This document shows positions 465-61,342 of a stretch of 64,000 nt of DNA, piece by piece. Position numbers and translations under genes: made by a program. Under the pieces are notes generated by a model that saw only the letters and a program-made list of their open reading frames with translations, had not been told where the DNA came from and ran no database searches. Source of the DNA: Acidimicrobiales bacterium. Its GTDB lineage: Bacteria; Actinomycetota; Acidimicrobiia; Acidimicrobiales; CAIXPF01. Location of the stretch: assembly GCA_041394365.1 (NCBI GenBank), contig JAWKIM010000015.1, positions 69,658 through 133,657 of the forward strand. The letters are read 5' to 3'. Position 1 is the stretch's first letter; each line of letters starts with the position of its first letter.

Positions 465-1328
465 ATGACCAGCACCAAGCCGGTGGCCGTCGTGGTCGGC
501 GCCACCTCCAAGTGGCAGGCCGACGGCCGCAACACCCACCTGATCCACGGCGGGCCGGTGGACGACGCCGACCTACCGGTCGGTATCCGTTGGGGGGTGG
601 GCGGCGCACTGGCCCAGCGCTTCGCCGCCGAGGGCTGCTCGGTGGTGCTCACCACCCGCACCGCCGCCAACGCCGCACCGCTGCAGCAGGCCATCGTCGA
701 GCAGGGCGGTGCGTGCCGCACCGTGGAGCTCGACCTGGTGTCCGAGGCGTCGGTGCACAACGCCTTCGAGCAGATCCGCGACGAACTGGGCCACCCCGAG
801 CTGGTGGTCTACAACGCCGGCTACCTCGAGGGTCGGGACCTGCCCCCCGACCAGGAGCTGATGGAGCACATCCCCACCGAGCTGTTCGACACGGCGCTGC
901 ACATCGCCTGCCGCGGACCGTTCCTGGTGGCCAAGGAGGTGCTCCCGGCCATGCGGGCTGCGGGGCGGGGCTCCTACCTGCTGTCGAACAACGCCGCCTC
1001 CCTGCGGGGCCGCAAGCGCTACACCGGCCAGTCGCTCTACTACCCGCGCACGATGATGCGGGCGCTGGCCCAGGCGCTGACCGAGGAGTACGCCGAGCAC
1101 GGGGTGCACGTGGCCAACGTGGTCATCGACGGCCTCATCGACTCGCCCGGCACGCGGGGTCTGCCCCAGGCGCAGCGCAACCCCGACTCGGTGATGGACC
1201 CCACCCAGATCGCCGATGCGTTCTGGTACCTGCACACCAGCACCGCTCGGTGTGGACCCACGAGCTGCAGCTCACCCCCACGTCACCAAACCGAGCTTCT
1301 GAGCGGCGCGGTCACCGGGCACCGGTAG
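465..1328 (+). CDS. short-chain dehydrogenase/reductase (SDR); probable 1-nt frameshift near 1238 affecting the C-terminus
   Basis: Inner ATG of ORF 153..1328. MTSTKPVAVVVGATSKW is a Rossmann-type start. Also VVYNAGY and the YYPRTMMRAL region. The family-typical C-terminal HQHRSVWTHELQLTP is seen only in the neighbouring frame. Confidence 0.8.
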   Translation: MTSTKPVAVVVGATSKWQADGRNTHLIHGGPVDDADLPVGIRWGVGGALAQRFAAEGCSVVLTTRTAANAAPLQQAIVEQGGACRTVELDLVSEASVHNAFEQIRDELGHPELVVYNAGYLEGRDLPPDQELMEHIPTELFDTALHIACRGPFLVAKEVLPAMRAAGRGSYLLSNNAASLRGRKRYTGQSLYYPRTMMRALAQALTEEYAEHGVHVANVVIDGLIDSPGTRGLPQAQRNPDSVMDPTQIADAFWYLHTSTARCGPTSCSSPPRHQTELLSGAVTGHR

Positions 1329-1337
1329 GGTCGCGCC

Positions 1338-2204
1338 ATGGCGACGATGGAGATCGAACCGCTGCACGAACGGTTCGGCGCCCGGGTCCGCGGGATCGAC
1401 GTGACCGCCGGGCTCGACGACGAGACGCTGGAGGCCCTGCGGGCGGCCATCGACGAGCACTCGGTGCTCGTGCTGGTGGACCAACCCATGACCGACGAGG
1501 CCCAGCTGGCGTTCACCCGCCGCTTGGGCGAGCCCGAGGAGAACCACGTGACGTTCGGGCTGACCGGGCAACGCGTGTACCTGGGCACCATCGGCAACGT
1601 CATCGACGAGCACACCAAGCGCGACGCCGAGGACCCCAACACCCGCTTCCAGCGGGCGAACGAGCTGTGGCACTCGGACTCGTCGTTCCGCGAGGTGCCG
1701 TCGTATGTGTCGATCCTGCACGCCTACGAGGTCCCGGGCGAGGGCGGCGACACGCTGTTCGCGTCGATGCGCACCGCCTACGAGGACCTGCCGGCACCGC
1801 GCCGCGCCGAGCTCGACCCGTTGCTCGTGCTGCACGATTACGTGTTCTCCCGCTCGCAGGTGGCGCCGGTGGACCCGAACCACGCCGCCTCCCTGCCCCC
1901 GGTGGTCAACAAGCTGGTGCGCACCAACCCCCGCAACGGGCGGCGCAACTACTTCGTCGGCTCCCACGCCCGCTCGATCGTCGGCTGGTCGGGCATCGAC
2001 AGCCGCCGCCTCATCGACGAGCTCAACGCGACGGCCACGGTGGAGGGCAACGTGTACCGCCATCGCTGGACCCCCGGCGAGACCGTCATCTGGGACAACC
2101 GCACGATGTTGCACCGCGGCGGCGGGTACGACGCCGGCCGCTGGCGGCGCCACCTCCGCCAGACCCGGGTGCGCGGCGCCGGCCCCACGCGGCAGGAACC
2201 GTGA
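1338..2204 (+). CDS. TauD/TfdA-family Fe(II)/2-oxoglutarate dioxygenase
   Basis: ORF 1338..2204: FGARVRGIDV, LWHSDSSF (HxD iron ligands), GGDTLFASM, VIWDNRTMLHRG. Confidence 0.9.
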   Translation: MATMEIEPLHERFGARVRGIDVTAGLDDETLEALRAAIDEHSVLVLVDQPMTDEAQLAFTRRLGEPEENHVTFGLTGQRVYLGTIGNVIDEHTKRDAEDPNTRFQRANELWHSDSSFREVPSYVSILHAYEVPGEGGDTLFASMRTAYEDLPAPRRAELDPLLVLHDYVFSRSQVAPVDPNHAASLPPVVNKLVRTNPRNGRRNYFVGSHARSIVGWSGIDSRRLIDELNATATVEGNVYRHRWTPGETVIWDNRTMLHRGGGYDAGRWRRHLRQTRVRGAGPTRQEP

Positions 2205-2324
2205 CGCCGCCCGCGCCGCGCACCGGGCGGTACGTGCGGTGGCAACGGGGCGACCGGTGACGGCGCGGAACGAAGTTCTCCGTCCGGTAGGGTGGCGCAG
2301 CGTTCTGAGCGCTGAGGTGAAACG

Positions 2325-3287
2325 ATGGCAGGTGGCCTGATCGGCCTGTTGGACGATGTGGCGGCGCTGGCCAAGTTGGCCGCGGCGTCGATCGACGATG
2401 TGGGGGCGGCGGCCGGCAAGGCCAGCGTCAAGGCCGCGGGCGTGGTGGTGGACGACACCGCCGTCACCCCGACCTACGTCCATGGCCTGGCGGCCGAGCG
2501 CGAGCTGCCCATCATCAAGCGCATCGCCGTGGGCTCGCTGCGCAACAAGCTGGTGTTCATCCTGCCGGCGGCGCTGGTCCTGTCGGAGTTCGTGCCCATC
2601 CTGGTGGAGATCATCTTGATGGCCGGCGGCGCCTTCCTCTGCTTCGAGGGCGCGGAGAAGCTCCACCACCGCTTCGCCGGCCACCACGACGACCACGACG
2701 TGCCCGCGGTGGCCGCCGGCGAGGACCAGGAGCGCAAGACGATCTCGGGCGCCATCCGCACCGACTTCATCCTCTCCGCCGAGATCATGGTGATCGCCCT
2801 CAAGGAGGTCATCGACGAGGGCTTCGTGTCCCGGGCGATCATCCTGGCCATCGTGGCCGTGCTCATCACCGCCGTCGTGTACGGCCTCGTGGCGCTGATC
2901 GTGAAGATGGACGACATCGGCCTGCGCATGGTCGAGCGCGGAGGCCCGAACGGCCAGAAGATCGGCCGGGGCCTCGTCGCCGGCATGCCCAAGCTGCTGG
3001 CGCTGCTGGCTGCGGTCGGCACCGCGGCCATGCTCTGGGTCGGTGGGCACATCCTGCTGGTGGGCACCCACGAGCTCGGCTGGGACGGGCTCTACGACCT
3101 GGTGCACGACATCGAGGAGCCGGTGCACGACATCGCCGGCGTCGGCGGCGTGCTCGGCTGGCTGGTCAACACGTTGATCTCGGCGGCCATCGGCATCGTC
3201 GTCGGGTTCGTCATCGTCGCCATCGTGTCCCGCCTGCCCCTGGGCAAGGACGGCAAGGGCAAGGCGGCGCCGCAGGTGGCGCACTGA
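2325..3287 (+). CDS. DUF808-family inner membrane protein (YedI-like)
   Basis: ORF 2325..3287: MAGGLIGLLDDVAALAKLAAASIDDV, GAIRTDFILSAEIMVIAL, multiple TM segments. Confidence 0.85.
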   Translation: MAGGLIGLLDDVAALAKLAAASIDDVGAAAGKASVKAAGVVVDDTAVTPTYVHGLAAERELPIIKRIAVGSLRNKLVFILPAALVLSEFVPILVEIILMAGGAFLCFEGAEKLHHRFAGHHDDHDVPAVAAGEDQERKTISGAIRTDFILSAEIMVIALKEVIDEGFVSRAIILAIVAVLITAVVYGLVALIVKMDDIGLRMVERGGPNGQKIGRGLVAGMPKLLALLAAVGTAAMLWVGGHILLVGTHELGWDGLYDLVHDIEEPVHDIAGVGGVLGWLVNTLISAAIGIVVGFVIVAIVSRLPLGKDGKGKAAPQVAH

Positions 3288-6460: not shown

Positions 6461-6563
6461 GGCGGGAGCGTAGCTGGCCCTGCCGGGCCCGCGGTCAGCT
6501 GCGGTACAGTCGGGCCCGTCGCGCTGTGGACGGTCGCAGGCGCCGGCGGTTGGGGGACCACCG

Positions 6564-7814
6564 ATGAGCAGCATCACCACGCGGGTCGGCCGCGAGTCCG
6601 GGTCGGTTGCTCCGGCCCGCACGTTCGACGCCTTCCGCATCCCGCAGTTCGGCCGGCTGTGGACCAGCGGCGCCCTGTTCAACCTGTCGCGGTGGGGCAT
6701 CTCGTTCCTCGCCGCGTTCGTGGCCAACAGCCTGTCGCACTCGCCCCGGCTCGTGCAGCTGACCGGGGTGGCCATGTGGACCCCGATGCTGCTGGGCGGC
6801 GTGGCCGGCGGCGTGGTGTCGGACCGGCTCGATCGGCGCCGCACGCTGCTGGTGCAGTACGCCGTGATGATCCCGATGGTGGTGGCGCTGGCCGTGCTGC
6901 AGGGTACCGGCCACCTGCGTCTGTGGATGATCTACCCGTTCCTGGTGGTGGCCGGGCTCGGGTTCGTGGTGGACATGACCACCCGCCGGGTCATCCTCTA
7001 CGACATCGTCGGCCCGGCCCGCCTGGACAACGCCATGGCCATCGAGTCGCTCAGCATGGCCGGCGGCCTGGCCTTCGGTGCGCTGGCCGGCGGTGCGGTG
7101 GTGGACGCGGTGGGCGTGGCCCAGGCGCTGTGGCTGGTGGCGGTGCTGCTGACGCTGTCGCTGCTGCTGTTCGCCACCATCAAGGTACCGCCCCGTACGG
7201 CGCCGCCCACCGGCTCGGCGGGCGGCGCGTTCCGCGAGGGCTTCGGCATGCTCCGCACCCACAAGGCGTTGGTCAGCATCCTCGGGGTCACGTCGTGCGT
7301 GAACTTCTTCTACTTCACCTACACCCCGCTGGTGCAGGTGATCGGGACCGACCTCGGCGTGCGCCCGGCGTTGGTGGGCCTGCTGGCCTCGATGACCGGT
7401 TTCGGCATGATGATCGCGTCGCTGACCACCGCCCGGCTGCGGCCCCGTCGACGGGGCGCGGTGTACACCGGCGGCGCGCTGGTGGCGCTGGTGCTGCTGC
7501 TGCCCTTCGCCGCCGCCAACACCTACCCGCTGGCGGTGCTGTGCCTGTTGGGCGCGGCGGTGGGCGGCGGGTTCTTCGGTGCGCTGCAGGGCGTGCTGGT
7601 GATGACGGTGGTGCCCGCCGAGCTGCGCGGCCGGGCGCTGGGCCTGCTCAGCATGGCCATCGGCGTCCTACCGCTCGGTATGTTGCTCCTGGGGGAGGTG
7701 GCCGAGCTGGTCGGCACCCGCAGCGCCCTGGCGCTGTCGGCCGGCACCGGGGCGCTCACCCTGCTGCTGTGGCTGTGGCGGCGGCCCCAGGTGGCCTCCA
7801 TCACCAGCGGCTGA
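6564..7814 (+). CDS. MFS transporter
   Basis: ORF 6564..7814: about 12 hydrophobic segments, FRIPQFGRLWTSG start typical of the enterobactin-exporter-like MFS group, DRLDRRR loop. Confidence 0.85.
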   Translation: MSSITTRVGRESGSVAPARTFDAFRIPQFGRLWTSGALFNLSRWGISFLAAFVANSLSHSPRLVQLTGVAMWTPMLLGGVAGGVVSDRLDRRRTLLVQYAVMIPMVVALAVLQGTGHLRLWMIYPFLVVAGLGFVVDMTTRRVILYDIVGPARLDNAMAIESLSMAGGLAFGALAGGAVVDAVGVAQALWLVAVLLTLSLLLFATIKVPPRTAPPTGSAGGAFREGFGMLRTHKALVSILGVTSCVNFFYFTYTPLVQVIGTDLGVRPALVGLLASMTGFGMMIASLTTARLRPRRRGAVYTGGALVALVLLLPFAAANTYPLAVLCLLGAAVGGGFFGALQGVLVMTVVPAELRGRALGLLSMAIGVLPLGMLLLGEVAELVGTRSALALSAGTGALTLLLWLWRRPQVASITSG

Positions 7815-9614
7815 CGGCGCGACGCCCGGGGCCGGGGTGCGAGCCGGGGCGCCCGGGCTGGCCCAGCGGGCGCGCACCTCGGCCGGTACCGCGGGGCGGC
7901 GCGACGGCACCGCCTCGAGCCGGCGGTACGGTTCGTCCTGCGCCGGACGGGGGTCGGCCTCGCCGTTGTTGGGCCACAGGCTCATGGCCCGCTCGGCCAG
8001 GGCGGTGATGCTGAGCGACGGGTTGACACCGAGGTTGGCCGACAGCGCCGAGCCGTCGAGCACGTGCATCGTGGGGTAGTGCCATACCCGCTGGTACGGA
8101 TCGAGCACACCCTGCTCGGCCGAGGCGGCGATCGTGCAGCCGCCGATGAAGTGGGCGGTCATCGGGATGTCGAGCAGGTCGGTGACGGGCGCGCCGGTCA
8201 TGGTGGCCAGCCCGGTGCGCCGTTGCACGAGGCGGGCCAGCACCCGCATGGCCTGGTGGCCGGCGGGGATCCAGCGCGGGCTCGGCGTGGTCTCGTCAGG
8301 GGCGGAGGTGAGCCGCCAGCCCCGGCCCAGCCGCCGCCGCACGGCGGACACGGTGATGGAGTTGTCCGCCGCCTGCATGACCAGCCCGATGATCGACCGC
8401 TGCGAGAACCGCCAGGCGAACGGTGGCACCAGGAAGCGCAGCAGGGTGGGCCGGCGGCGCAGCTCCTCCAGCAGGCCGCGCCAGCGCAGCGACCGCCGCC
8501 CGGCGGGCGCCTCACCGCCGGGCGCACCGTCGGCCATGAACATGACCAGCGCGCCCATGGCGTTGGAGCCGCGCCCGTAGCGGCAGTTCTCGATGTGGGT
8601 GCGCTCGTCGGCGTGGAACGACGTGGTGATGGCCAGGCCCCGGGTGAGGTCCTCGGCGGGCACCGTGCGGGTCATGGTGCCGAGGATGGCCTCGCTGTTG
8701 GTGCGGGTCCGCGCCCCCAGCCGGTCCGACAGGGCCGGCAGCGCACCGGAGGCCCGCAGGCCGTGCAACAGCGATTGGGTGCCCCAGGTGCCGGCGGCCA
8801 CCACGACGTGGGCGCAGGTGGTGGTGCGGCGGTCGCGTCGCACCCAGGCCCCGGTGCGCTCGCTCGTCACCCGCCACCCCGCCTCCGGACGATCGGGGTG
8901 CAGCGGGCGGACGTCGACGACGGTGCGCAGCGGCTCGATGCGCACGCCCAGGCGCTCGGCGAGCGCCAGGTAGTTCTTGACCAGCGTGTTCTTGGCGCCC
9001 ACCCGGCAGCCCACCATGCAGTTGCCGCACTGGGTGCAGCCGGTGCGCTCCGGGCCGGCACCGCCGAAGTAGGGGTCGGGCACGGTCACCGCCGGCTGCG
9101 GTTGGCCATCGGGACCGAAGAACACGCCGACGGGCGCCTTGCGGAACGTGTGGCCGCGGCCGAGCGCCACCGCCGTCTCCCGCATGAGCTCCTCCGCCGG
9201 GCCCCACACCGGGTGGTCCTCGTCCACGCCGAGCATGCGCCGCGCGGTGGCGTAGTGCGGTCGGAGCTCGGCCTCCCAGTCGGTGATGGCGGCCCATTGG
9301 GGGTCGCGGTAGAAGGCGTCCGGCGGCTCGTACAGCGTGTTGGCGTAGACCAGCGAGCCGCCGCCCACCCCGGCGCCGGCGAGCACCAGCACGTCGCGCA
9401 GCAGGTGGATGCGCTGCAGCCCGAAGCAACCCAGCTTGGGCGCCCACAGGTAGCGGCGCAGGTCCCACGACGTCGTGGGGAGGTCCTCGTCGGCGAAGCG
9501 CCGGCCGGCCTCCAGCACGACCACGTCGTAGCCCTTCTCGGCCAGGCGCAGGGCGCTGACGCTGCCCCCGAAACCGGAGCCGATGACGACGACGTCGCAG
9601 TCCAACCCGGGCAC
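7668..9614 (-). CDS. GMC-family FAD oxidoreductase (cholesterol-oxidase-like); C-terminal ~50 aa doubtful
   Basis: ORF 7668..9614: DVVVIGSGFGGSVSALRLAEKGYDVVVLEAG (FAD GxGxxG), GCTQCGNCMVGC, AHFIGGC, NPSLSITALAERA. The tail overlaps the convergent MFS gene by 147 nt. Confidence 0.85.
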   Translation of the reverse strand: MPGLDCDVVVIGSGFGGSVSALRLAEKGYDVVVLEAGRRFADEDLPTTSWDLRRYLWAPKLGCFGLQRIHLLRDVLVLAGAGVGGGSLVYANTLYEPPDAFYRDPQWAAITDWEAELRPHYATARRMLGVDEDHPVWGPAEELMRETAVALGRGHTFRKAPVGVFFGPDGQPQPAVTVPDPYFGGAGPERTGCTQCGNCMVGCRVGAKNTLVKNYLALAERLGVRIEPLRTVVDVRPLHPDRPEAGWRVTSERTGAWVRRDRRTTTCAHVVVAAGTWGTQSLLHGLRASGALPALSDRLGARTRTNSEAILGTMTRTVPAEDLTRGLAITTSFHADERTHIENCRYGRGSNAMGALVMFMADGAPGGEAPAGRRSLRWRGLLEELRRRPTLLRFLVPPFAWRFSQRSIIGLVMQAADNSITVSAVRRRLGRGWRLTSAPDETTPSPRWIPAGHQAMRVLARLVQRRTGLATMTGAPVTDLLDIPMTAHFIGGCTIAASAEQGVLDPYQRVWHYPTMHVLDGSALSANLGVNPSLSITALAERAMSLWPNNGEADPRPAQDEPYRRLEAVPSRRPAVPAEVRARWASPGAPARTPAPGVAPSAAGDGGHLGPPPQPQQQGERPGAGRQRQGAAGADQLGHLPQEQHTER

Positions 9615-11789: not shown

Positions 11790-12559
11790 AGGCTGAGCTG
11801 GACCTGACCGTCGCTCCAGTCGGCGCCGCAGGAGCGGTAGTCGTCGGTCTCCACGCAGAACCAGTAGAGCGTACCGCCCCGTACGGCGGCCTCGCCCTCG
11901 ACGGTGATCGTGCCGAAGTCGGCCACGGTGCGCTGGAGGTACTGCCGGTGCCCTCCGTCGGGCGCATGGCCGAACGTGAAGCCGACGAAGCGCTCGAAGC
12001 CCTCGCTGCAGCCGTAGACCACCGGGTCCACCAGGTTGCCCTGGACCACCGCGTACTGGCTGAGCTCCGCTTCGTCGGTGTCGCCGTCAGCGCCCGCCGG
12101 CAGGAGGTCCAGCACCCCGTCGAGGTCGATCAGCTGGCAGCGATCACCCAGGTAGGCGTAGCGGGTGTCGTCGAGCTCGATGTCCCGGTCGAGCTGGTCG
12201 AGCACGGCGAGCGTGGCCGACGGATCCACGTCGTCGCCCCCGCCGAGCAGCCGCCAGGCCACGAGTGCACCGCCGGCCAGCAGCACCAGGCCGAGGACGG
12301 AGACGGCGGCGACGACGAGCCCGGTGCGCCCCTTCGGCGCCGGTGGCTGGGACCAGCCGCCGGGGGGCGGCGGTGGCGCACCGGGAACGGGCCCGGTGGG
12401 AGGCCAGCCCGGGGGTGGGCCGCCCACCGGTGGGCCGCCAGGCGGTGGGGCCGGCGGCCAGCCGCCGGGTCCGTTGGGCGGGGGCGGGAACGGGCCGGTC
12501 ACCGGTACGACGTTAGTGGGGCGCGAAGCGAGACGGTGGGCGCGCCCCGCCGGGCGCAC
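11672..12559 (-). CDS. proline-rich, single-pass membrane-anchored hypothetical protein
   Basis: ORF 11672..12559: PPPPNGPGGWPPAPPPGGPP low-complexity N-terminus, TM LVVAAVSVLGLVLLAGGALVAW, acidic extracytoplasmic domain with paired Cys residues. Start codon uncertain. Confidence 0.5.
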   Translation of the reverse strand: MRPAGRAHRLASRPTNVVPVTGPFPPPPNGPGGWPPAPPPGGPPVGGPPPGWPPTGPVPGAPPPPPGGWSQPPAPKGRTGLVVAAVSVLGLVLLAGGALVAWRLLGGGDDVDPSATLAVLDQLDRDIELDDTRYAYLGDRCQLIDLDGVLDLLPAGADGDTDEAELSQYAVVQGNLVDPVVYGCSEGFERFVGFTFGHAPDGGHRQYLQRTVADFGTITVEGEAAVRGGTLYWFCVETDDYRSCGADWSDGQVQLSLYGSELDADEAAEWMRAALTDLLEQTGELDPDRIRVEEF

Positions 12560-13408: not shown

Positions 13409-13476
13409 CACCGTCCGGCCGCGTGACCGGCCGCCTGCGCGAGCGCCTGATCGGGTTGCGGCCGGGGTTCGTGTGC

Positions 13477-13496
13477 GGGATACCGGTGGGTATCCC
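13477..13496. promoter_or_regulatory. 20-bp perfect palindrome GGGATACC-GGTG-GGTATCCC (operator-like)
   Basis: Read directly from sequence. 8-bp arms, 4-nt spacer, intergenic. Strongest member of the TACC-N4-GGTA family. Confidence 0.5.
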
Positions 13497-13662
13497 GGGA
13501 ACCCGTCGCGCTCGATTCGACGTCGATTCGGAATTGGTCGTGAGACACGAATTCCGGTCGCTTTTGGTGAGGTGTCGGGTCCCTGGCGTTGCCGGTGGAC
13601 ACCAGCGGTGGGCACCCGGAGCCCGTGGGTCGAAAGCGCCGAATCGAACTCGAATCGGCGCC
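13477..13662 (+). repeat. dispersed structured repeat, copy 1
   Basis: A 52-nt block (13499-13550) is 46/52 identical to the reverse complement of 18996-19047. Block 13637-13662 matches the reverse complement of 18888-18910. The two blocks are mutually complementary (CGATTCG..CGATTCGG / CCGAATCG..CGAATCG). Confidence 0.7.
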
Positions 13663-13717: not shown

Positions 13718-13813
13718 TTGCCCGGCGGCGGGCCGGCGGTGGCTGCGGGTGGCGACAGCGCCACGTCAGCGAGGCCACGGGCCGGCGACAGCGGCATCGC
13801 GCACGATGCGGCC

Positions 13814-17200: not shown

Positions 17201-18177
17201 TCAGGCGCGGGCGATGACCAGTTGGCGGCTGGCCCGGATGACCGCGCCCGGATGGCTGAGCGTGGCGTGCTCGACGTGCTCACCGTGCTCGACGTGCTCA
17301 CCGTCGAGCAGGGCGGCCAGGCGGCGAGGTCGCCGGCATCGGCGTAGCCGTCCAACTGGCGCACGGTGCGCCGGACCTGTCCGGCGGCGTAGCGGCGGGC
17401 GTCGTCGTCGAGCGGGCCGGGCAACTCCTCGTGCACGACCTCGTCCACCACCACCTCGAACCCGGCCGCCCTCACCGCCGCGCCATACCCAGTGGTATCT
17501 GCGGCGCCGGCGCGGGCCACCACGCCGGGCACGGTGGCCCGCAGGTCGACGAACCAGCGCTCCCAGGCGGCGTCCAACCGGGCCCACAGCCCGGGACGGC
17601 CGAGCTCGACCGATTCGGGCAGCACCCGCACCGGGGTGGCCCGTTCCACGATGGCCAGCAGCCCGCCCGGGCTGAGCAGCGCGCGCATGCGGCGCAGCGC
17701 ATCGACCTCGTCGCCGACGTGGTGCACCACCAGCGACGCCCACAGCAGGTCCGCCCGGCCGAGGCCGTCGATCCCGTCGGGCAGTTCCACCAGCCGGCGC
17801 TCGACCCGACCGGTGAGGCCCAACTCATCGGCCCGTGCGACGGCCCGGTCCAGCATGGCGTTCGAGCCGTCGGCGGCCACCACGGTGGCGTTGCCGAAGC
17901 GGGTGGCCAGCAGGCAGGTCCCCACCCCCGGGCCGCAGCCCACGTCGAGCAGGCGGCGGACCGTGAGGTGGTGGCGATCGCACTCGCCGGCCACCCGGTC
18001 GACCAGGCGGGCCACCAGCCCGCTGAGCATCGTCGCCTCCTGCTCGGCGAAGCGGACCATCTCGGGGGTGTCGAAGTGGACATGGTGGTGCTGCCGGCGG
18101 CGGGCGTCGTGCTGGTGCTGGTGCTGATCGTGCTGGTGCTGGTGCTGGTGCTGGTGCTGGTGCTGGTGGTCGGCCAT
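17201..18177 (-). CDS. class I SAM-dependent methyltransferase with His/Gln-rich N-terminal tail; probable 1-nt frameshift near 17320
   Basis: ORF 17113..18177: MADHQHQHQHQHQHQHDQHQHQHD, LLDVGCGPGVGT (motif I), LLSPGGLLAIVE. The likely C-terminus LLDGEHVEHGEHVEHATLSHPGAVIRASRQLVIARA lies in the neighbouring frame and ends at 17201. Confidence 0.75.
18109..18168. repeat. hexanucleotide microsatellite (GTGCTG)n = (CAGCAC)n on the coding strand, encoding the HQ repeat
   Basis: Read directly: gtgctggtgctggtgctgatcgtgctggtgctggtgctggtgctggtgctggtgctggtg. Confidence 0.9.
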
Positions 18178-21615: not shown

Positions 21616-21757
21616 CGCACCGGTCTAGCCGACCGGCCGGCGCGGCCCCACCCGCGGGCACGGGGTGCCCGTTCCCGACGGCCCTACGGTACGGTACGGC
21701 CAGCCCGGCACTTCGGCGCTGGAACGATGACCCGAACACCACCGGGGAGGTCCCACC

Positions 21758-27620: not shown

Positions 27621-27639
27621 CGGTTCACGCCGGCCCCAA

Positions 27640-31108: not shown

Positions 31109-31373
31109 CGTTCGGCTCCTTCGGTCACGGGCCTCCCACCCCGGGAGGTCACTGCCGTGATTCTCGCGCGCCGGCCGTCGCTATGACGGATGGCACACGG
31201 CGTGCCGGCTCGCCGGCGGGGTCCTGTGCGCGCCGTTCGCCCACCGCGGCGGCCTGAAGTGGTCCCAACGCACGCGGCGTGGCGCGCCACGCGGAGCGAC
31301 CGGGGCCCTGACCAGGTCGAAGGTCGCGCCGTACCGGTGGGTATGGCAGGTCCGGTGAGCCGTTCTAGACCCT

Positions 31374-31925: not shown

Positions 31926-34187
<2,262 letters not shown>

Positions 34188-36937: not shown

Positions 36938-37995
36938 GTGGTCGATTTCGGCGTGATGATCAGTTCCGGCTCTCGAAGCGTGCGCGACGGTGTGACCGCC
37001 ACGCACGCCTTCTCCCATGTGGTGTCACAGGCCCAGTGGGCGGAGGAGCACGGTTTCACCGGTGTGTGGGTGGGTGAGGGCCGTCTGGCCACCAGCGCGA
37101 TCATCCCCATGTCGTTGATCGCGGCCAACACCAGCCGGGTGAAGATCGGCAGCGGCATCCTGCCGTACCGCACCCGCAACGCCGCCCTGCTGGCGGTCAC
37201 GTTCAAGACGCTCGACGACCTCGCCCCCGGCCGCATGCGGCTGGGCCTGGGTCCGTGGTGGGAGCCGCTCGCCACCCGCACCGGCCTGGTCAACCGCAAG
37301 CCGCTCAAGGCGATGCGGAGGTGATCACCGTGTGCCGTGAGCTGCTGGCCGGCCGGACGGTGACCTACCACGGTGAGTTCGTCGACGTCAGTGACATCCG
37401 CTTCGACGGGCCCGACGACGACGACGGCAAGGCCTACCCGGTGCCCATCTACATCGGCGCCGTACGGATGGGTATGGTGCAGCTGTCGGGCGAGATCGCC
37501 GATGGGGTGCTGCTCGATTTCCTCGTCCCGCCGTCCTACAACGTGGAGGCGATGGAGGCGGTGCGCAAGGGAGCGGCCCTCTCCGGGCGTTCGCTGGACG
37601 GCTTCGAGGTGCCCCAGCTGATCGCCGCGTCGATCGACGACGCCGATCCCGCCACCGCGGTGGACGACTGCCGGGCCTTCCTCACCCAGTACATCGCCCA
37701 ACAACCGCACATCACCGAGACCTGCGGTGCCGACCCGGAGCTGATCGACGCCATCAAGGCCGAGCTGGCCTGGCCGGCCACCAAGGCCGAGGTCCGCCAC
37801 ACCATGCGCCTGGTGCCCGATTCGTTGGTGCACTCGGTGTGCGCCTGCGGCACCGCCACCCAGGCGCTGGACAAGATCATGGAATGGGTCGACGCCGGTT
37901 GCACCGAGCCGGCGATCACGCCGCTGAGCGCCGACCCGCTGCAGACGCTCGAGGCGCTGGCCAAGGCGGCCAACCTCGCCGGCGTGGCTCGATGA
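36938..37995 (+). CDS. LLM-class flavin/F420-dependent oxidoreductase, one frameshift near 37318
   Basis: GTG 4 nt after AGGAGG. VDFGVMISSG, GFTGVWVGEG, LGLGPWW in ORF 36833..37324. Continues VITVCRELLAG..YIGAVRMGMVQLSGEIADGVLLDF in ORF 37255..37995. Confidence 0.8.
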
Positions 37996-40746: not shown

Positions 40747-41874
40747 ATGAAGAAACTGCATCTGCTCGCCTTCGCCGCCGTGCTCGCCTCGGCGTCGCTC
40801 GCCGCCTGCGGAGGTGACGACGGCGACCCGGCCGCCACCGGCGCCACCGGGGCCGCCACCGACGACTCGGCCGCCGCCTCCGGCGGTGCGGCCACCGGTG
40901 AGATGACCGAGATCAACCTGACCCTGCAGTGGGTCACCCAGGCCCAGTTCGCCGGGTACTACGCCGCCCTCGAGCAGGGCTACTACGAAGAGGAGGGCAT
41001 CGATCTCACCATCCAGCCCGGCGGGCCCGACATCAACCCCATCCAGCTGCTGGTCTCCGGTGACACCGACATCGCCATCCAGCAGTTCGGCGCCGTGCTC
41101 GCCGCCCGGGAGACCGGCGCCGACCTCAAGAGCATCGGCCAGGTCTTCGAACGCGGTGCATACCGACTGGTATCGTTCGCCGACAGGGACATCACCTCGG
41201 GGGACCAGATCAAGGGCAAGACGGTCGGTCTGTGGAACGGCTTCCAGCCGGCGTTCTCGGCCACGGCCGGCAAGTACAGCCTCGATCTCGACACCGACGT
41301 GGAGATCTTCAACCAGGGCTTCGACATGGTCGCCTTCCTCGACGGTCAGATCGACATGGCCTCGGCCATGACCTACAACGAGTACGCCCAGGCGCTCGCC
41401 GGCGCCGAGGGCCGCGAGATCTCGGTGTTCGACTTCAACGAAGAGGGCACCGCCACCCTCGAAGACACCATCACCACCACCGGGGCGTGGCTCGATGCCA
41501 ACCCCGATGCTGCGGTCGGGTTCCTCAAGGCCACCGCCAAGGGCTGGATCTACTGCCGGGACAACCCCGAAGAGTGCGTCCAGATCGTGCTGGAGAACGG
41601 CACCGCGCTGCCGGAGAACTTCCAGACCTGGCAGATGAACGAGGTCAACAAGCTGCTGTGGCCGTCCACCAACGGCGTGCTCAACCTGACCGACGACATG
41701 TTCAGCCAGACCGCCGACATCCTCCTCAAGTACGAGGTCATCAAAGAGGCCGCCAGCGAGGAAGCCTACGACATGTCCTTCCGTGACAAGGCGGTGGCCG
41801 AGCTGTCCGAAGAGGACGTGATGGGCGCCTCGTTCAAGCCGCTCGAGCTCGACCCGGCCGAGCTGTTCGGGTGA
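40747..41874 (+). CDS. ABC substrate-binding lipoprotein (NMT1/THI5-like)
   Basis: MKKLHLLAFAAVLASASLAAC lipobox, LQWVTQAQFAGYYAALEQGYYEEEGIDLT. Confidence 0.85.
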   Translation: MKKLHLLAFAAVLASASLAACGGDDGDPAATGATGAATDDSAAASGGAATGEMTEINLTLQWVTQAQFAGYYAALEQGYYEEEGIDLTIQPGGPDINPIQLLVSGDTDIAIQQFGAVLAARETGADLKSIGQVFERGAYRLVSFADRDITSGDQIKGKTVGLWNGFQPAFSATAGKYSLDLDTDVEIFNQGFDMVAFLDGQIDMASAMTYNEYAQALAGAEGREISVFDFNEEGTATLEDTITTTGAWLDANPDAAVGFLKATAKGWIYCRDNPEECVQIVLENGTALPENFQTWQMNEVNKLLWPSTNGVLNLTDDMFSQTADILLKYEVIKEAASEEAYDMSFRDKAVAELSEEDVMGASFKPLELDPAELFG

Positions 41875-46296: not shown

Positions 46297-48616
46297 TCAG
46301 CGGCTTTCGGGGCTGACCCGCCAGATGCGCCCACCGACGTCGTCGGACAGGTAGAGCGCCCCGTCGGGCCCCTCGGCCACGTCCACGGCGCGGTGCTCCG
46401 CCTCGGCGGGCAGGTCGGTGCTGTCGCCGGCGAAACCGTCGGCGAACACCTCCCACTCGCCGGTGGCCATGCCGTCCTCGAACGGGACGAACGCCACGAC
46501 GTAGCCCGGCCCCTCGGGCTGGTTGGCCGGATCGAAGCGGGAGCCGTGGAAGGCGATGAACGCACCGTCTCGGTAGCGCTCGCCGAGGGCGTCGACGGTG
46601 GGGAACGTCATGCCCAGCGGGGCCCAGTGGGCCGGGAAGGTGACCGCCGGTTCCGGCACGTCGTCGCACCGGCCGGCCTCGCGGCCGTCGCCGCCGTACT
46701 CGGGGGCGAGCACATGGCGCCCCTGCTGGGGATCGAAGTAGCAGTACGGCCAGCCGTAGTCACCGCCCTCGACGATGGCGTGGACCTCCTCGGCGGGCTT
46801 GGTGAGATCGTCGGCCTCGTCGTAGCGGTCGGGCCAGTTCTCGAACAGCTGGTCGCGACCGTTGATGGCGGCGTACAGGCGGCCCGTGTCCGGGTCGATG
46901 GCCAGCGTTGGCGTTGCGCACACCCGTGGCGTAGCGGGTGCCGTCGGCCTGGGTCTGGCCCTGCTCGTCGGCGTCGAAGCGCCAGATGCCGGCTCGGTCC
47001 TCGAGCTCGGGGCAGGGGTCGATCCCGGGTGAGAACGGCTCGCGGTTGTCCACCTGGCAGGCGTTCGACGGTGAGCCGATGTTGACGAACATCCGGCCCT
47101 CGTCGTCGATGACCGCGGTCTTGGCGAAGTGGTCGGGGGAGTCGGGCAGGCCGCTGACGATCGTCTCCGGATCGCCGTCGGGTGTGAGGCCGACACTGTC
47201 CCCGGCGGGCAGGCGGTAGCGCACGACGCTGTCGTTGCGGGCGAGGTAGAGCCAGCCGTCGTGGACGGTCACCCCGTTGCCGCCGCGTTCCCCGAAGCGT
47301 TCGATGTGCTCGGCGTGGCCGTCGCCATCGTCGTCGCGCAGGGCCACGACACCGCCGTCGGGATCGCCGCCGGGGGCGTCGGCGATGGCGACGTACACGG
47401 TGCCGTCGGGCGCAACGCTGAGGTGGCGGGCACCGACCAGCCCGTCGGCGAACACGCTGGCGCACAGGCCGTCGGGCAGGGTGATGCCGGCGTTGGCGGC
47501 GTTGGCGGCATCGCAGGTGCCGGTGGCGGTGGCGTCGCCGTCGAACGCGGTCAGCGGGGTGGCGGTCACGTCGAAGGGGGTGATCGGGTCGCCGTCTCGC
47601 TGGTCGAGCTGGCCGTTCACCACCAACAGCCGATCGCCGTCGAGCGCGGCGGTGGTGGGGAAGCGGAGCTCGTCGCTGCGCACCGTGCCGGTGACCTCGG
47701 CCCACCGGCCGGCCGGGTCGAGATCGAGCCGGGTGATGGTCGAGGCGGCGTTCTGCACCACGTACAGGGTGGGCCGGGCGTCGTGCGGTTCGCTCGGCGC
47801 CGGGTTGACCAGCGCGAGGCCGTCGCCACCCTGGAAGGAGACGCCGTCGGTGTCGATGCGCTCGACGGTGCCGTCATCGGTGGTGATGCGCCACAGGGCG
47901 CCGGTGTTGGACTGGACGGCCACCAGGAAGCTGCCGCTCTCGCTCACCACGATGCCGTTCAGGTTGAACCCGTCCTCGTAGGTGAGCGGGGTGTCGGTCA
48001 GATCGAGCCAGGCTTCGAGGCGACCGTCTTCGGCCCGCTCGCCGCTGCGTGGCGTTGCCTCGTCGACGTTGAACCGGTAGATCGCCGGGCGCCGCGAATC
48101 GGTCACGTACCCCCAGCCGTCGTCCGAGACGGCAACGTCGTTGAGGAAGCCCTCGGACGGCTCGCCGGGGGCGCGCAGCGTCCGCAGGGCGGTGCCGTCG
48201 GAGTCGAGCACGCTGAGGACACCGGTGGCGCCGCCGGCGGCGTAGACCCGGCCCTCGCCGTCGACGGCCAGGCCGACTGCGGTGGTGCGCCCGGCCTCGC
48301 CGCCGGGGGCGAACGGCTCGGTGGTGCCGTCGGGCCGCAGGCGGGTGAGCGAACCGTCGGTGGTGCTGCCCACCACGAACGTACCGTCCGGTAGGGCGGC
48401 GATGCCTTCGGGGAAGGAGACGGCGTCGGGCAGCGCGTAGCGGGCGGCCACCACGGCGGGTTCGGGGCGCTGGGCGGTGTCGGTGGTGGGTGCGGTGTCG
48501 GTTGCGCGCCCCGGGTCGTCGGCGAGCGGAGCTGCGCCGGCGGTGGGTGCGGTGGCCGCGGCCAGGGTGAGCATCGACATCGCCGCGAGGGGCGGCAGGA
48601 ATCGACTTCGGCGCAT
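46297..48616 (-). CDS. secreted fusion protein: N-terminal SMP-30/lactonase-like beta-propeller plus C-terminal PQQ-type glucose/sorbosone dehydrogenase-like propeller; one frameshift near 46915
   Basis: Signal peptide MRRSRFLPPLAAMSMLTLAAATAPTAGAAP. FPEGIAALPDGTFVVGS, GLAVDGEGRVYAA, FLNDVAVSDDGWGYVTDS. Then HLSVAPDGTVYVA, GIWRF, INGRDQL, GGDYGWPYCY, AVDVAEGPDGALYLSDD (ORFs 46760..48679 and 46297..47196). Confidence 0.7.
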
Positions 48617-52504: not shown

Positions 52505-54004
52505 TCAGTGATCGGTTGCGGGCGCAGCGCGGTGTGAGGAGGAGCCGGCCGGGAACGTGAACAGGATCAGCACCGCGCTGAGGCCCATCATGGCGGTGAC
52601 CCACAGCCAGCCGTTCCGGTAGCCGGTGAACCCCTCGGCGGCCGCGAGCAAGGTGATGGCCACCGAGATGCCCACGCCGTAGAACACCTGCATGATCGTG
52701 CGCAGCGTGGCGTTGGCCACCCCGAAACGGGCCTGGTCCACGTCGCTGACCGACGCACTGAACCACGACGCGATCGACATGCCGGTGCCGAGGCCGGCGA
52801 TCATGCTGATCGGTACGAAGCGGGTCCACACCTGTGGGGTCTCGCTCAACAGCAGCAGGTACAGCAGCGGGCTGAGGGCGAGGAGCGCCGAACCGATGCC
52901 GATCAGCCAACGGTGCCCGTACCGGTCGGCCGTGCGCCCGGTGACCACCGACGTGACCGTGGCCAGCAGCGGTCCCGGGGTCAGCGCGGCGCCGGTCCGC
53001 AGGATCGACTGGTCCCACAGGTTCTGCAACAGCAACGAGTTGAGCAGGAACTGCGAGGTGAAGCCCATGGAGTAGAAGGCCACCGCCAGGTTGGTGGACG
53101 AGAACGAGCGGTGGCGGTAGAGCGACAGGTCGAGCAGCGGCTCCGGATGGCGTTTGGAGCGGGCGATGAGCAGCGCGATCAACCCCACTGCGGCGACGGC
53201 GGGGGCCAGCACCCGCACGTTGGCCAAGCCCCACTGCTCCGACTGCACGATGGCGAACATCCCCATCGCCACCCCGGCCGTACCGATTGGTATGCCAAGG
53301 AGGTCCATGCGCCCGCTGGCGTCGGGGTTGCGGGACTCCCGGAAGATGCGCCGACCGAGCACCAGCACCAGCAGGCACAGCGGCACGTTGATGAGGAACA
53401 CGAAGCGCCACGACCCCAACCGGATCAGCACCGACCCCAACGACGGGCCGAACGCCGCGCCCAGCGAGCCGGTGGCGCCCCAGAACCCGACCGCCGTCGA
53501 ACGACGCGACAGCGGGAACTCCGGCAGGACCAGGGCCAACGAGGCGGGCATGAGCACGGCGCCGCCGATGGCCTGCACCACCCGCGCCGCGATGAGGAAG
53601 CCGGTGTTCGGCGCCATACCGCACAGCAGGGAGCCCACCATGAAGGCGGCCACGCCGGGCAGGAACACCTTCTTGCGGCCCAGGCTGTCGGCCAGGCGGC
53701 CGCCGAGCAACAGGAAGGCGGCGACGCCGATGTTGTAGCCCGACACGATCCAGCTGAGCGACGTCTCCGACGCGCCCAGATCGGTGCGGATGGTGGGGAA
53801 CGCGACGTTGACCACCGACACGTCGACCACCACGAGGAACGAGACCATGGTGGCCACCCCGAGCGCCAACCACGCCTGGCGGGGGACCGCCTCCGCCCCG
53901 GGCGGGCCCGCCGCCGTCGGCGCCCCTGACCGGTCCCCGTTCGCATGGCTGCGGACCCTATCCCAGCGGCGCGGCGCTCCGCCCGCACCAGACTGCAGCA
54001 CCAT
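52505..54004 (-). CDS. MFS transporter, DHA2/EmrB-like (14 TM)
   Basis: ORF 52505..54034: VVDVSVVNVAFPTI, SWIVSGYNIGVAAFLLLGGRLADSLGRKK, 14 hydrophobic segments. Start chosen at MVLQ; could be further in. Confidence 0.85.
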   Translation of the reverse strand: MVLQSGAGGAPRRWDRVRSHANGDRSGAPTAAGPPGAEAVPRQAWLALGVATMVSFLVVVDVSVVNVAFPTIRTDLGASETSLSWIVSGYNIGVAAFLLLGGRLADSLGRKKVFLPGVAAFMVGSLLCGMAPNTGFLIAARVVQAIGGAVLMPASLALVLPEFPLSRRSTAVGFWGATGSLGAAFGPSLGSVLIRLGSWRFVFLINVPLCLLVLVLGRRIFRESRNPDASGRMDLLGIPIGTAGVAMGMFAIVQSEQWGLANVRVLAPAVAAVGLIALLIARSKRHPEPLLDLSLYRHRSFSSTNLAVAFYSMGFTSQFLLNSLLLQNLWDQSILRTGAALTPGPLLATVTSVVTGRTADRYGHRWLIGIGSALLALSPLLYLLLLSETPQVWTRFVPISMIAGLGTGMSIASWFSASVSDVDQARFGVANATLRTIMQVFYGVGISVAITLLAAAEGFTGYRNGWLWVTAMMGLSAVLILFTFPAGSSSHRAAPATDH

Positions 54005-55823: not shown

Positions 55824-55898
55824 CGCGTCACCTCCGACCCGGATGCTAGGGACCGACCCGTCCGCAACGGGAATGTCGCGGCGGACAGGGGCCGGGGC

Positions 55899-58857: not shown

Positions 58858-60230
58858 ATGTTCTCGCAGCTGGCGGTGGGTGGCGACCGCTCGAAATCGG
58901 CTCCGGCCGACGATGCTGGGCGGCTGACCCGCTTGACCCGGTTGGCGGCGTTGGCGGCCGCCGCCTTCGGGGCGCCGATGGCCGCCATCAGCCTGTGCGA
59001 AGGCGGCCGTCGGTGGTCGGTGGCCAGCAGCGGCGTGAGCGCCGCCCGGGTGCGGCAGGATCCGGTGCTGTGCCTCCTCGTCGTGGGCGAACCACAAGAG
59101 GACCCGTTGTTGGTGGCCGACGTGCGCGCCGACGCCCGCTTCGAGCGCAGCACGCTCGTCCGGGGCGAGGAGGCGATCCGCTCGTTCGCCGGCGTGCCCG
59201 TCCGCGACCCCGGCGGTCGGGTGATCGGAGCGGTCTGCGTGTTCGATCCCCGTGTGGGCTGCGCCGCCGAGGGCCCCGTCGGCTGCTTGCGTGACGTCGC
59301 CGCCCTGGTGGAGCAGGAGTTGGCCGACCGGGCGCTCACCAGCGCGTTTCGGGCGGCGCTCGACCGCTACCGGGCGCTGCTCGAACACGCCACCGACCTG
59401 CACCTGGTGCTCGACGAGGCCAGGCGCGTGGTGCTCGTCTCGCCATCGGTGGAGCGCATGCTCGATGTCGCAGCGGATGTCGAGGATCTCGGCGGGCAGC
59501 TGCTGGCCCACGTGCACCCCCAGGATCGGCCGGAGGTGCTCGGGTTCCTCGATCGGGTGGAGGGGGGCCTCACCGCCCAGACCGCCACCGCCCGACTGCT
59601 CGATGTGCACGGCCGCTGGCGTCGCTACGAGTTCGTCGGGCGCAACCACCTGCACGACCACGGCATCGCCGCCCTGATCATCACCGGGCGCGATGTGACC
59701 GACCGCGATGCGGTCATCCAGCAGCTCACGCACCTGGCTACCCACGACCACCTCACCGGGCTGGCGAACCGGGCCAACCTGCGCGCCGCGTTGAAGACCA
59801 CGCTCGCCCGCGTCGCCCGCGATGGTCACATCGCCGCCGTCTGCTGCATCGATCTGGATCGGTTCAAGGCCGTGAACGACACCTGGGGCCATGCGGCCGG
59901 CGACGTGGTGCTGCGGGCCGCGGGCCAGCGCATCGCAGCCATCGTGCGGGAGGGGGACACCGCCGCCCGAGTGGGTGGTGACGAGTTCGTGGTGCTGCTC
60001 GATCCCGTCGCTTCCGAGCTCGACGCTGAGCACGTGGCGGCGCGTCTGCGCGACGCGGTGGAAGCGATCGACCTCACCGCCCCCCTGGTGACGATCGGCG
60101 CCAGCATCGGTGTGGCCATCTGCGAGCCGACCGACACCATCGACTCGGTCCTGGCGCGCGCCGATCAGGCCCTCTACCGGGACAAGCGGCGGCGGACGTC
60201 CCCGGTCGACGAGCCCCGGCCGTACCTAAC
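58858..60230 (+). CDS. GAF-PAS-GGDEF diguanylate cyclase; 3' end uncertain
   Basis: ATG at 58858 within ORF 58738..61311. GAF-like LVADVRADARF..FAGVPV, PAS-like HPQDRPEV, HDHLTGLANR, RVGGDEFVVLL, ADQALYRDKRRR. The ORF then reads on for 1.1 kb with no domain-like sequence; a TAA at 60227-60229 in a neighbouring frame would end it. Confidence 0.8.
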
Positions 60231-60495
60231 GGTACGCCCGGCTGACCCGGCTGGCGGGCAGCCGGCGCCGGCGCCCGTCGTCCAAGCGCAGCACGACCTC
60301 GTTGCGGGTGCGCAGCGTGTCCACCACGATGCCGGTGGCTCCCCGGTAGGAGCGGTGACGCCACCCGGTGCGGGTCACCCGGACGAGATCGCCCGGCTGC
60401 AGGGCCCCGGAGGCGGGACCGGGCCGGGCCGTGCGGTGGTCGGTGGCAGTGGACGGGAGCGGTTGTGCGCCGGCGGAGAGGTGCCAAGGGAACAT
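60226..60495 (-). CDS. small hypothetical protein (SH3/KOW-like beta-rich C-terminus)
   Basis: Tail of ORF 60226..60981 from MFPWH: LQPGDLVRVTRTGWRHRSYRGATGIVVDTLRTRNEVVLRLDDG. Weak support. Confidence 0.3.
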   Translation of the reverse strand: MFPWHLSAGAQPLPSTATDHRTARPGPASGALQPGDLVRVTRTGWRHRSYRGATGIVVDTLRTRNEVVLRLDDGRRRRLPASRVSRAYR

Positions 60496-60656
60496 GGCGA
60501 TGACGTACCCAGCGGGCTGCGTGGTTGCACGGGTCGGGTGCGGCGATCCTCCGTGCGACGGCCGTCGATGCTGGCTCGGCTGTCGATGCTGGCTCGGACG
60601 CGCTCCACAGCGCCGTCGCATGGAGCTCGGGCGCAGACTCGCCATACCGAGCGGTA

Positions 60657-61342
60657 TCACCGGCGGACGGCTCGGCCGTGCAGCCACAGGCCGGTTGCGA
60701 GCAACAGGGCGCCCAGGACCAGGAAGCCGACGTCCCACACCCAGACGTTGTCCACGTCGCTGGCCATGCGCACGTGGTGCAGCTGCAAGATGTGGTGGTC
60801 GACCACTCCCTCCACCAGGTTGAAGGTGCCCCGCCGGCCAGCACCGCACCGAGCAACGACGCCCACGAGAAGGGGCCGGATCGGCGCAGCACCGCCGGAC
60901 CCTCCGGCGATGCGTCGGTGCGTGTACCACGGCGGCGAGCGCATGCGGGCCCGTCTCAACAGGGGGCGGCGGCCTCCTCACCCACCCGGGCGGGCAGTGC
61001 CGGGCCGGCCGGGCGCAGCGTGTTCGACTGCGTGGATCGTGTGGCGTCGCGCAGCGCCCACAACGTGCGGGGCAACGCCACCGTGTCGCGGGCCCAACGC
61101 ACGAGGAACGGGTCGTGGAGCACGTCAGGTGGGTGGCGGTGGCGGTGCACGACGGCGACGTACCACAGCGCCACCGGTATGCCGAGGCCCACGGTCATCC
61201 CGATGGCCAGCACGACCACCACCAGCGTCGGCTGCTTGCCCGCCCGTTCGTACATCTCCCTCGGTGCCCGGCGGGCGGCGGCCAGGGCGAGGGACCCCGG
61301 CACCAGCGTGAACACCAGCGCGGCGAGCAGGCCGCCGATCAT
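60657..61342 (-). pseudogene. membrane protein with DUF2243-like C-terminal half, frameshifted
   Basis: MIGGLLAALVFTLVPGSLALAAA..PTLVVVVLAIGMTVGLGIPVALWYVAVV (tail of ORF 60956..62473), then PFSWASLLGAVLAG / GTFNLVEGVVDHHILQLHHV..WDVGFLVLGALLLATGLWL (ORFs 60074..60892 and 60657..60959). Confidence 0.4.

Follow-up and report, generated by a model that had tools for sequence, protein, structure and literature searches.

We analysed a 64,000-nucleotide stretch of DNA from an Acidimicrobiales bacterium (GenBank assembly GCA_041394365.1, contig JAWKIM010000015.1, positions 69,658 to 133,657), hereafter called the window, in which the interrupted palindrome TACC-N4-GGTA occurs 12 times. The over-representation of this motif is real and far above chance under three null models, and the motif array is a genome-wide trait of a narrow clade of Acidimicrobiia. 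The sequence of the sites suggests that they may form a chromosome-wide array of binding sites for a dimeric, TetR-like helix-turn-helix protein, a tentative reading to which we give somewhat less than an even chance.

Over-representation of the TACC-N4-GGTA palindrome

An earlier note on this DNA, made from the letters of the window, had listed the 12 copies by eye, and every coordinate was found to be correct; its count of five perfect ATACC-N4-GGTAT sites was likewise reproduced. Dinucleotide-preserving shuffles (n = 100) yielded a mean of 0.03 sites and a maximum of 1, while 0.21 sites were predicted from the product of the half-site counts (107 for TACC and 124 for GGTA). Synonymous-codon shuffling of 52 confident genes gave 0.18 expected sites compared to the 8 observed in those genes, with a maximum of 2 in 2000 shuffles, indicating that the over-representation claimed in the note also holds under a codon-aware null model. 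The motif was over-represented at least ~60-fold, rather than avoided in the way typical of a restriction-modification target.

The enrichment was confined to the 4-bp spacing. All other spacings among 0-24 were at background in the window, and the inverted arrangement GGTA-Nk-TACC also occurred at background level over the same spacings. TACC was the sole tetramer of 256 to be enriched as a spacing-4 palindrome. The shorter pattern TAC-N6-GTA, taken as a whole, was observed 18 times in the window compared to 1.6 expected.

An extended consensus was built from 38 half-sites, with isolated TACC half-sites as the comparison set. The full consensus was about CRTACCGATCGGTAYG, a 16-bp extended palindrome (probe form, CATACCGATCGGTATG). 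Position -2 was C in 68% of half-sites versus 38% around isolated TACC (p = 4e-4), and position -1 was a purine in 84%, with A alone in 47% versus 10% around isolated TACC (p = 9e-8). Within the spacer, the first position was G in 58%, and the two central positions were A/T in 39% versus 8% around isolated TACC (p = 2e-6). The half-site centres are about one helical turn apart, and the spacing is strictly 4. Since the flanks are otherwise unrelated, the sites are not copies of an inserted element. The note had also described near-misses with one mutated arm, and 17 one-mismatch copies were indeed present versus about 5-9 expected. Position 4 tolerates G, as the classes TACG-N4-GGTA and TACC-N4-CGTA together gave 5 copies (Table 1) versus 0.43-0.76 expected; the remaining one-mismatch classes were near expectation.

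Retention of the sites in independent assemblies

The window has a GC content of 72%. Its closest carboxyltransferase homologues were found in metagenome-assembled genomes (MAGs) of Acidimicrobiales/Acidimicrobiia, and acyl-CoA dehydrogenase homologues of ~85% identity were labelled Ilumatobacteraceae; an exact-protein look-up of one window protein returned no record. The window was aligned to L161, a MAG contig from the same species with 98% identity. The comparison demonstrated many 1-bp deletions in the G/C homopolymer runs of the window, with indels at 60217, 55507, 55150, 53984, 53923, 50319, 49599, 49496 and 46145, and 145 of the 202 genic substitutions were at third codon positions. Split genes were found near 16.3 kb (an ABC transporter), at 37.3 kb (a luciferase-like monooxygenase), at 54.9-55.8 kb (PFK) and over most of 25-32 kb, among others, and the frameshifted regions were 16300-16430, 25000-31900, 32780-34250, 37320 and 54880-55830. 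Frameshifts also affected GH65 and Abhydrolase_3 fragments and an amidohydrolase. Judged from these alignments, the window looks like an unpolished long-read-type assembly, prone to indels, of a real strain variant and not like a pseudogene set.

Homopolymer deletions of the long-read type are what could make one suspect an assembly or basecalling artefact, an option that the note had raised for the motif itself. The four comparable sites (48382, 53281, 60223 and 60645) were all kept, spacers included, in independent same-species assemblies (GCA_050246965.1, GCA_050176135.1, and Logan re-assemblies of SRR27751815 and SRR27751816). No miscalls were seen at the sites compared between the window and L161, a result uninformative on methylation. 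The motif was also present in relatives from other projects (L001 and L165). One of these, SJ307 (L001; MAG with contig JADLEF010000056; ~84% nucleotide identity), retained it at the position orthologous to 53281, reading ATA CCG ATC GGT ACA versus ATA CCA ATC GGT ACx in the window (in the frame of the L161 gene call), so that the sole change is silent and lies in the spacer. The sites encode conserved residues, as at 8085, where the motif specifies the Tyr and Val of a conserved Y-x-R-V-W peptide. Among homologues, 55 of 62 codons for this Val were GTC or GTG and 7 were GTA. The basecalling option is refuted by these data, and chance is contradicted by the three null models, all of which expect about 0.2 sites or fewer versus 12. 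We give next to no credence to either as the source of the motif.

Distribution of the motif in the clade

Outside the window, a contig of the same species (L167) contained 3 sites in 21 kb, and L183, its near-identical counterpart, added a fourth. L165, a non-syntenic contig from a JGI metagenome whose carboxyltransferase is 86-87% identical to that of the window, contained 4 sites in 17 kb versus 0.06 expected. The motif-positive total was 19 independent sites in 102 kb, or ~0.19 per kb (~1 per 5 kb), and this density was found in three separate regions or lineages. The RH lake lineage had 1 site in 43 kb. No sites were found in 43 kb of the TH lake lineage, 16 kb of the Erken lineage, 27 kb of GCA_022842355.1 or ~200 kb of more distant Acidimicrobiia. 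By assembly, GCA_041394305.1 ranks with the motif-positive genomes, and GCA_947476745.1 and GCA_945906305.1 rank with the motif-negative ones. Identity matrices gave an unresolved split at ~86% amino acid identity among the window species with SJ307, L165, GCA_022842355.1 and the lake clade. The trait is therefore young or patchy.

No alternative 4-Nk-4 palindrome was enriched in the motif-negative lineages. AGGT-N4-ACCT seemed to be enriched in L002-L004 and was rejected as an alternative motif, its copies being the same orthologous coding positions.

A scan of IMG/VR for ATACCGATCGGTAT returned 90 contigs, none of which was both high-GC and motif-dense, and gave no phage link. One viral contig of 47% GC (L195) has three exact ATACCGATCGGTAT copies within 1.4 kb (7883-9273), and a related contig of 47% GC (L221) has two copies at 6249-7453 with the same 1191-bp spacing. 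These viral copies may be phage operator sets and are unrelated to the high-GC clade.

Sites within genes and their origin by silent changes

To assign coding status, we combined a reading-frame analysis with gene calls from the clean relatives. By this measure about 10 of the 12 copies in the window are intragenic (Table 1), and only 13481 and 60645 are clearly intergenic. The earlier count of at least 4 of 12 sites in non-coding DNA was too high: sites 7669 and 60223 are in gene 3' ends that overlap the stops of convergent open reading frames (ORFs), 33807 is probably inside a frameshift-broken gene, and so, less certainly, is 31332. Clade-wide, 16 of 20 sites were intragenic and 4 of 20 intergenic, compared to ~12% non-coding DNA, an excess that was not significant, and promoters were not preferred.

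All three codon phases were used, with phase 1 (xTA CCx xxx GGT Axx) the commonest. The codons that make up the motif are very rare, with GTA representing 1.3% of Val, CTA 0.3% of Leu and ATA 0.8% of Ile codons, as the note had suspected when it described the motif as written with rare codons. Three phases and very rare synonymous codons also agree with its view of a DNA-level signal and not a peptide motif.

Motif copies align codon for codon with motif-free orthologues. In the conserved gene for acyl-CoA dehydrogenase, the codons of the window species are GTA CCG GTG GGT ACC, whereas three relatives of ~90% identity have GTC CCG xTG GGC ACx with the same amino acids. As read from the aligned codons, two silent third-position changes (C-to-A and C-to-T) created this site against the compositional bias. 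The CoA-transferase of L165 versus L184 was also tried as an ancestral-state test and was rejected for insufficient orthology. The GMC-oxidoreductase homologues in the metagenome scan were at most 65% identical, and the orthologue comparisons are accordingly confined to sites further right in the window than the first five.

A gene position was called permissive if the protein allows the motif there through synonymous codons. The motif was present at 7 of 20 permissive positions in window genes (0.055 expected from codon usage) and at 7 of 21 in the clean gene calls of L161, L167 and L165 (0.16 expected), compared to 0 of 25 in motif-negative relatives (0.23 expected). Permissive positions were equally dense in motif-positive and motif-negative lineages, indicating that the force works via silent changes and that proteins are not detectably altered. 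This force outweighs codon bias and is outweighed by protein-level selection. It is also measurable, in that it overrides a bias of ~95% G+C at third codon positions (GC3) at one third of permissive positions while the proteins remain unchanged.

Resemblance to TetR-type operators

AibR, a TetR-family protein of Myxococcus xanthus, was crystallised on CCTACCGATCGGTAGG (PMC5389471), and the 12-mer at window site 574, TACCGGTCGGTA, is identical to the core inferred for the native operator of AibR (PMC5389471). TTHB023, a TetR-family protein of Thermus thermophilus, binds CTGACCGATCGGTCAG (PMC7022988). The form xACC-N4-GGTx is an established TetR-type operator architecture, and the motif described here has this geometry in a palindrome within the 15-18 bp of such operators. 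The AibR and TTHB023/PfmR operators are nearly the same as the motif in sequence and spacing; they number 1-10 per genome and lie in promoters beside the regulator or its targets, whereas the motif is mostly intragenic (~16 of 20 clade sites), with no TetR gene nearby in the clade sequence scanned.

In its dispersal the motif is closer to the sites of SlmA in Escherichia coli and of Noc and RefZ in Bacillus subtilis, which are dispersed 12-20 bp palindromes, mostly outside promoters (PMC3020112, PMC6657595); MatP sites share this dispersed, non-promoter character. SlmA has a TetR fold and a 12-bp palindromic site, and gave 52 peaks in chromatin immunoprecipitation, none in promoters (PMC3020112). 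RefZ likewise has a TetR fold, and the sites of all three proteins, which are dimeric, serve chromosome-position functions (PMC3020112, PMC6657595). The SlmA, Noc and RefZ sites number 5 to ~70 per genome, are not strongly over-represented in coding DNA and are conserved across families or genera. In contrast, several hundred sites per genome are implied here, in a much narrower clade and for a putative binder.

In the RH lineage, one perfect copy lies ~28 nt ahead of a carboxylesterase gene; at the corresponding place in the TH lineage there is a copy with one mismatch. These copies suggest that a protein recognising the sequence pre-dates the expansion of the array, and the carboxylesterase copy could be the ancestral local operator. 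The RH region (L173 14820-14890) has three GGTAC half-sites with a 10-bp period, followed by the full CTACCGGGCGGTAC, and the TH region (L179 16000-16015) reads ATACCGAGACGTAT.

At distant high-GC homologous loci, a TTACC-N4-GGTAA-type copy was observed at a conserved position just upstream of an operon (L090 6272-6283, L120 4337-4348, L131 1127, L132 3937, L112 1471, L138 8280, L146 1373 and L149 59), and several copies directly adjoin the ATG of an operon for an aldehyde dehydrogenase (or ADH) and a GMC oxidoreductase. These upstream copies have the look of a conventional operator belonging to the same sequence class, and none of the few neighbouring ORFs inspected was a TetR gene.

A possible chromosome-wide array of binding sites

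The strict one-turn geometry and the 16-bp consensus with its central A/T preference point to a homodimeric helix-turn-helix protein. The 16-bp consensus, taken together with the match to TetR operators, favours a binding site for an abundant protein over a methylation-linked iterated palindrome. We infer each of the three parts of this reading, namely protein binding, TetR-likeness and a chromosome-level role. The 12 window sites and their counterparts would be high-affinity sites for a homodimeric helix-turn-helix protein, with the TetR family the likeliest source. The binder would be used chromosome-wide in this narrow clade of Acidimicrobiia, away from promoters, much as SlmA in E. coli and RefZ and Noc in B. 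subtilis read positions along the chromosome from scattered palindromes that are mostly intragenic. The starting point would have been an ordinary local operator that existed before the expansion. From there, the array would have been built by point mutation with no insertion, as silent third-position changes to rare A/T-ending codons made CRTACC-N4-GGTAYG wherever the protein permits, and weak selection would keep the copies against the strong GC3 bias.

Several points weigh against a TetR-like array. No TetR_N gene was found among the scanned window proteins or in the gene annotations of L161, L165, L167 and L183, and the ~100 kb of clade sequence examined contained no gene for a TetR-family protein or any other candidate binder. 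The several hundred sites implied per genome are about tenfold more than those of SlmA or Noc. Lineages ~86% identical in housekeeping proteins lack the array, and no alternative palindrome was found in them; so patchy a distribution is narrower than is usual for proteins that organise chromosomes. The resemblance to operators is a match to sequences in the literature.

A fuller account would be that an uncultured Ilumatobacteraceae-like clade of Acidimicrobiia has recently spread several hundred copies of a 16-bp TetR-type operator over its chromosome, through silent changes at about one third of the permissive gene positions. The array would then be a new chromosome "address" system in Actinomycetota, with a role in nucleoid occlusion or organisation, in self-marking, or as a protein-based counterpart of HIP1, and its origin from a local operator may still be visible in sister lineages. 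We regard this full account as possible and rather doubtful.

Alternative explanations

The iterated palindrome HIP1 of cyanobacteria (GCGATCGC) offers a different model, in which a clade-specific methyltransferase recognises the motif, possibly as TAC-N6-GTA, and copies are made and kept genome-wide through an associated bias in repair or gene conversion, or through selection that favours methylated sites. The motif is similar to HIP1 and the alternative cyanobacterial HIPs in that a short palindrome is found many-fold above expectation genome-wide, in coding and non-coding DNA, and inside genes without disturbing the proteins; it is likewise lineage-specific and of unsettled function. The narrow and patchy lineages suit this model, as methyltransferase genes typically vary at such a scale, and the alternative HIPs co-occur with methyltransferases of matching specificity, a repair-based model having been proposed for the way these palindromes arise (PMC4390886). 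The high occupancy without more permissive positions fits a drive weaker than protein-level selection, and TAC-N6-GTA is enriched as a whole. However, HIP1 is a contiguous, GC-rich 8-mer at ~1 per kb, tied to known orphan methyltransferases (PMC4390886), whereas the motif described here is bipartite (4+N4+4), extended to 16 bp, has A/T arms at 72% GC and occurs about once per 5 kb in Actinomycetota. No DNA methyltransferase gene was found in the ~100 kb seen, the one methyltransferase of the window being of the small-molecule type, and preferences over 16 bp that include the central A/T exceed the usual methyltransferase specificities. A repair drive from T:G to C:G cannot give A/T arms at 72% GC, the observed gains being C-to-A and C-to-T, and the lack of miscalls at the four comparable sites of a long-read-type assembly adds a weak argument. 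A HIP1-like origin is unlikely in our judgement, and it is the alternative we take most seriously. An improbable one is that the motif marks DNA as self for uptake or recombination, a signal of the kind of the DNA uptake sequences (DUS/USS) of Neisseria and Pasteurellaceae or of Chi, and is spread by preferential uptake or repair of DNA that bears it. The motif resembles these in being short, clade-specific with a dialect-like distribution, over-represented and embedded in genes, at a density (~1 per 5 kb) within their range of ~1 per 1-5 kb. DUS often form the inverted repeats of terminators, and E. coli has a Chi site about every 4.5 kb; some intergenic copies of the motif are at the tips of terminator-like hairpins past genes (L167 and window site 13481). 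A recent preprint connects HIP1 with transformation efficiency (bioRxiv 10.1101/2024.09.10.611283). The known uptake sequences, like Chi, are asymmetric (Chi also strand-oriented) and depend on ComP and on RecBCD/AddAB, whereas the motif is palindromic. It also counts against uptake that Acidimicrobiia are not known to have competence or a receptor.

An ordinary operator of a large regulon, for example one under an acyl-CoA- or sulfonate-responsive TetR regulator, would account for the sequence match to TetR operators and for the catabolic genes in which the window is rich (TauD, luciferase-like monooxygenases, an SsuA-like binding protein and acyl-CoA enzymes); the copy at L165 4589 is in a divergent promoter region, and that at L173 14873 is just upstream of a gene. 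A regulon of this kind, which the note had offered as one explanation, is in conflict with the intragenic location of most sites, which is near the ~88% coding density, and with the lack of significant enrichment between genes. Several of the intergenic copies follow stop codons and do not precede starts, and one site per 5 kb in unrelated gene contexts far exceeds any regulon, so that this explanation is a poor one. A hairpin acting at the RNA level, as a terminator, processing site or stability element, has still less to recommend it. Three to four copies are at the tips of longer stems, including the copy at 3189 of L167, which is at the tip of a hairpin of -44.8 kcal/mol (z = -5.7; 3165-3225, - strand). 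In most copies, however, the stem is just 4-6 bp, no Rfam match was found, and copies occur in genes on either strand; the sequence is conserved and not the pairing, with the persisting variants TACG...GGTA and GACC...GGTA breaking it. Repetitive extragenic palindromes (REP/BIME) and miniature inverted-repeat elements (MITEs) also reach hundreds of lineage-specific palindromic copies per genome, the number implied here. They are inserted units of at least 20 bp with conserved flanks between genes, whereas the motif has unrelated flanks, replaces codons in place and is mostly intragenic.

Significance of the array

Literature searches for the motif strings and related topics returned TetR operators only and no account of an over-represented TACC-N4-GGTA. 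The features that distinguish the motif are its bipartite, operator-like form, its A/T arms at 72% GC and its very recent origin, with close lineages free of it. Genome-wide iterated palindromes have been documented mainly in cyanobacteria (HIP1), where their function is unsettled after decades, and the present case is an independent and evolutionarily young example, with positive and negative lineages ~14% apart in housekeeping proteins. A comparison of gene content between the close lineages could directly reveal the responsible protein, either a DNA binder or a methyltransferase. If a TetR-like binder does act chromosome-wide, the array would be a candidate nucleoid-occlusion or chromosome-organisation system in Actinomycetota, a group in which, to our knowledge, no counterpart of SlmA or Noc has been described. 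Such motifs also distort codon-usage and motif statistics in analyses of MAGs.

Genomic context of the window sites

Table 1. Copies of TACC-N4-GGTA in the window and variants of the position-4 class
Feature	Sequence	Coordinates	Context	Codons or remarks
Site	TACCGGTCGGTA	574..585	SDR-like gene, + strand	CTA CCG GTC GGT ATC
Site	TACCGCTCGGTA	7669..7680	3' part of MFS gene (6564-7814, + strand)	CTA CCG CTC GGT ATG
Site		8085..8096	GMC-oxidoreductase gene, - strand	TAC CAG CGG GTA (Y-Q-R-V)
Site	ATACCGGTGGGTAT	13481..13492	Intergenic, 73 nt past PhyH stop codon	
Site	ATACCCAGTGGTAT	17486..17497	Class-I SAM methyltransferase gene, - strand	Codon phase 2
Site	TACCGGTGGGTA	31332..31343	25-32 kb stretch with coding signal switching frames (frameshifted gene remnants)	
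Site	ATACCGAACGGTAT	33807..33818	Probable: amidohydrolase gene broken by assembly frameshifts	
Site	ATACCGACTGGTAT	41161..41172	NMT1/SsuA-like substrate-binding protein gene, + strand	TAC CGA CTG GTA
Site		48382..48393	779-aa uncharacterised gene, - strand	CTA CCG GAC GGT ACG; kept in L161
Site		53281..53292	MFS transporter gene, - strand	ATA CCA ATC GGT ACx; kept in L161/L162 and SJ307
Site	TACCTAACGGTA	60223..60234	Overlap of convergent ends: 3' end of GAF-PAS-GGDEF gene and small-ORF stop	Kept in L161-L164
Site	ATACCGAGCGGTAT	60645..60656	Intergenic, directly past DUF2243 gene stop (- strand)	Kept in L163
Variant	TACC-N4-CGTA	7186..7197		Enriched position-4 class
Variant	TACC-N4-CGTA	11872..11883		Position-4 class
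Variant	TACG-N4-GGTA	21685..21696		Position-4 class
Variant	TACG-N4-GGTA	26512..26523		Position-4 class
Variant	TACG-N4-GGTA	37463..37474		Position-4 class

Site 7669 overlaps the TAG stop of the convergent GMC-oxidoreductase ORF. The last ~70 codons of this ORF (window 7668-7880) were matched by no homologue; the segment overlaps the 3' end of the convergent MFS gene, and the coding signal there is in the MFS frame. The end of the GMC-oxidoreductase ORF was probably displaced by an assembly frameshift.

Site 13481 forms the tip of a perfect 9-bp hairpin, CGGGATACC-GGTG-GGTATCCCG. It is located in an unusually long (~530 bp) non-coding stretch between the PhyH and hemerythrin-like genes (13409-13942), in which tandem repeats (GATGGATGACC three times and GGGGT four times) and several inverted repeats, such as GCGCCGAATCGA...TCGAATCGGCGCC, were observed. 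The very stable hairpin in L167 lies 34 nt past the stop of the acyl-CoA dehydrogenase gene and resembles a terminator without a U-tract. Rfam and tRNA scans of the window gave no matches.

Two pairs of sites, 7669/8085 and 60223/60645, are spaced 416 and 422 bp apart. They were considered as the ends of a mobile element, and this was rejected, as the intervening sequences share no similarity; the spacing is probably a coincidence.

The window also contains genes typical of organosulfonate or sulfur-starvation metabolism, including TauD, several luciferase-like monooxygenases, an SsuA-like NMT1 binding protein with ABC components, and a Cys/Met enzyme of the pyridoxal-phosphate-dependent (PLP) type. 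These genes are located at 1338-2204, 34261-35283, 36938-37995, 38142-41874, 61361-62557 and 63150-63734.

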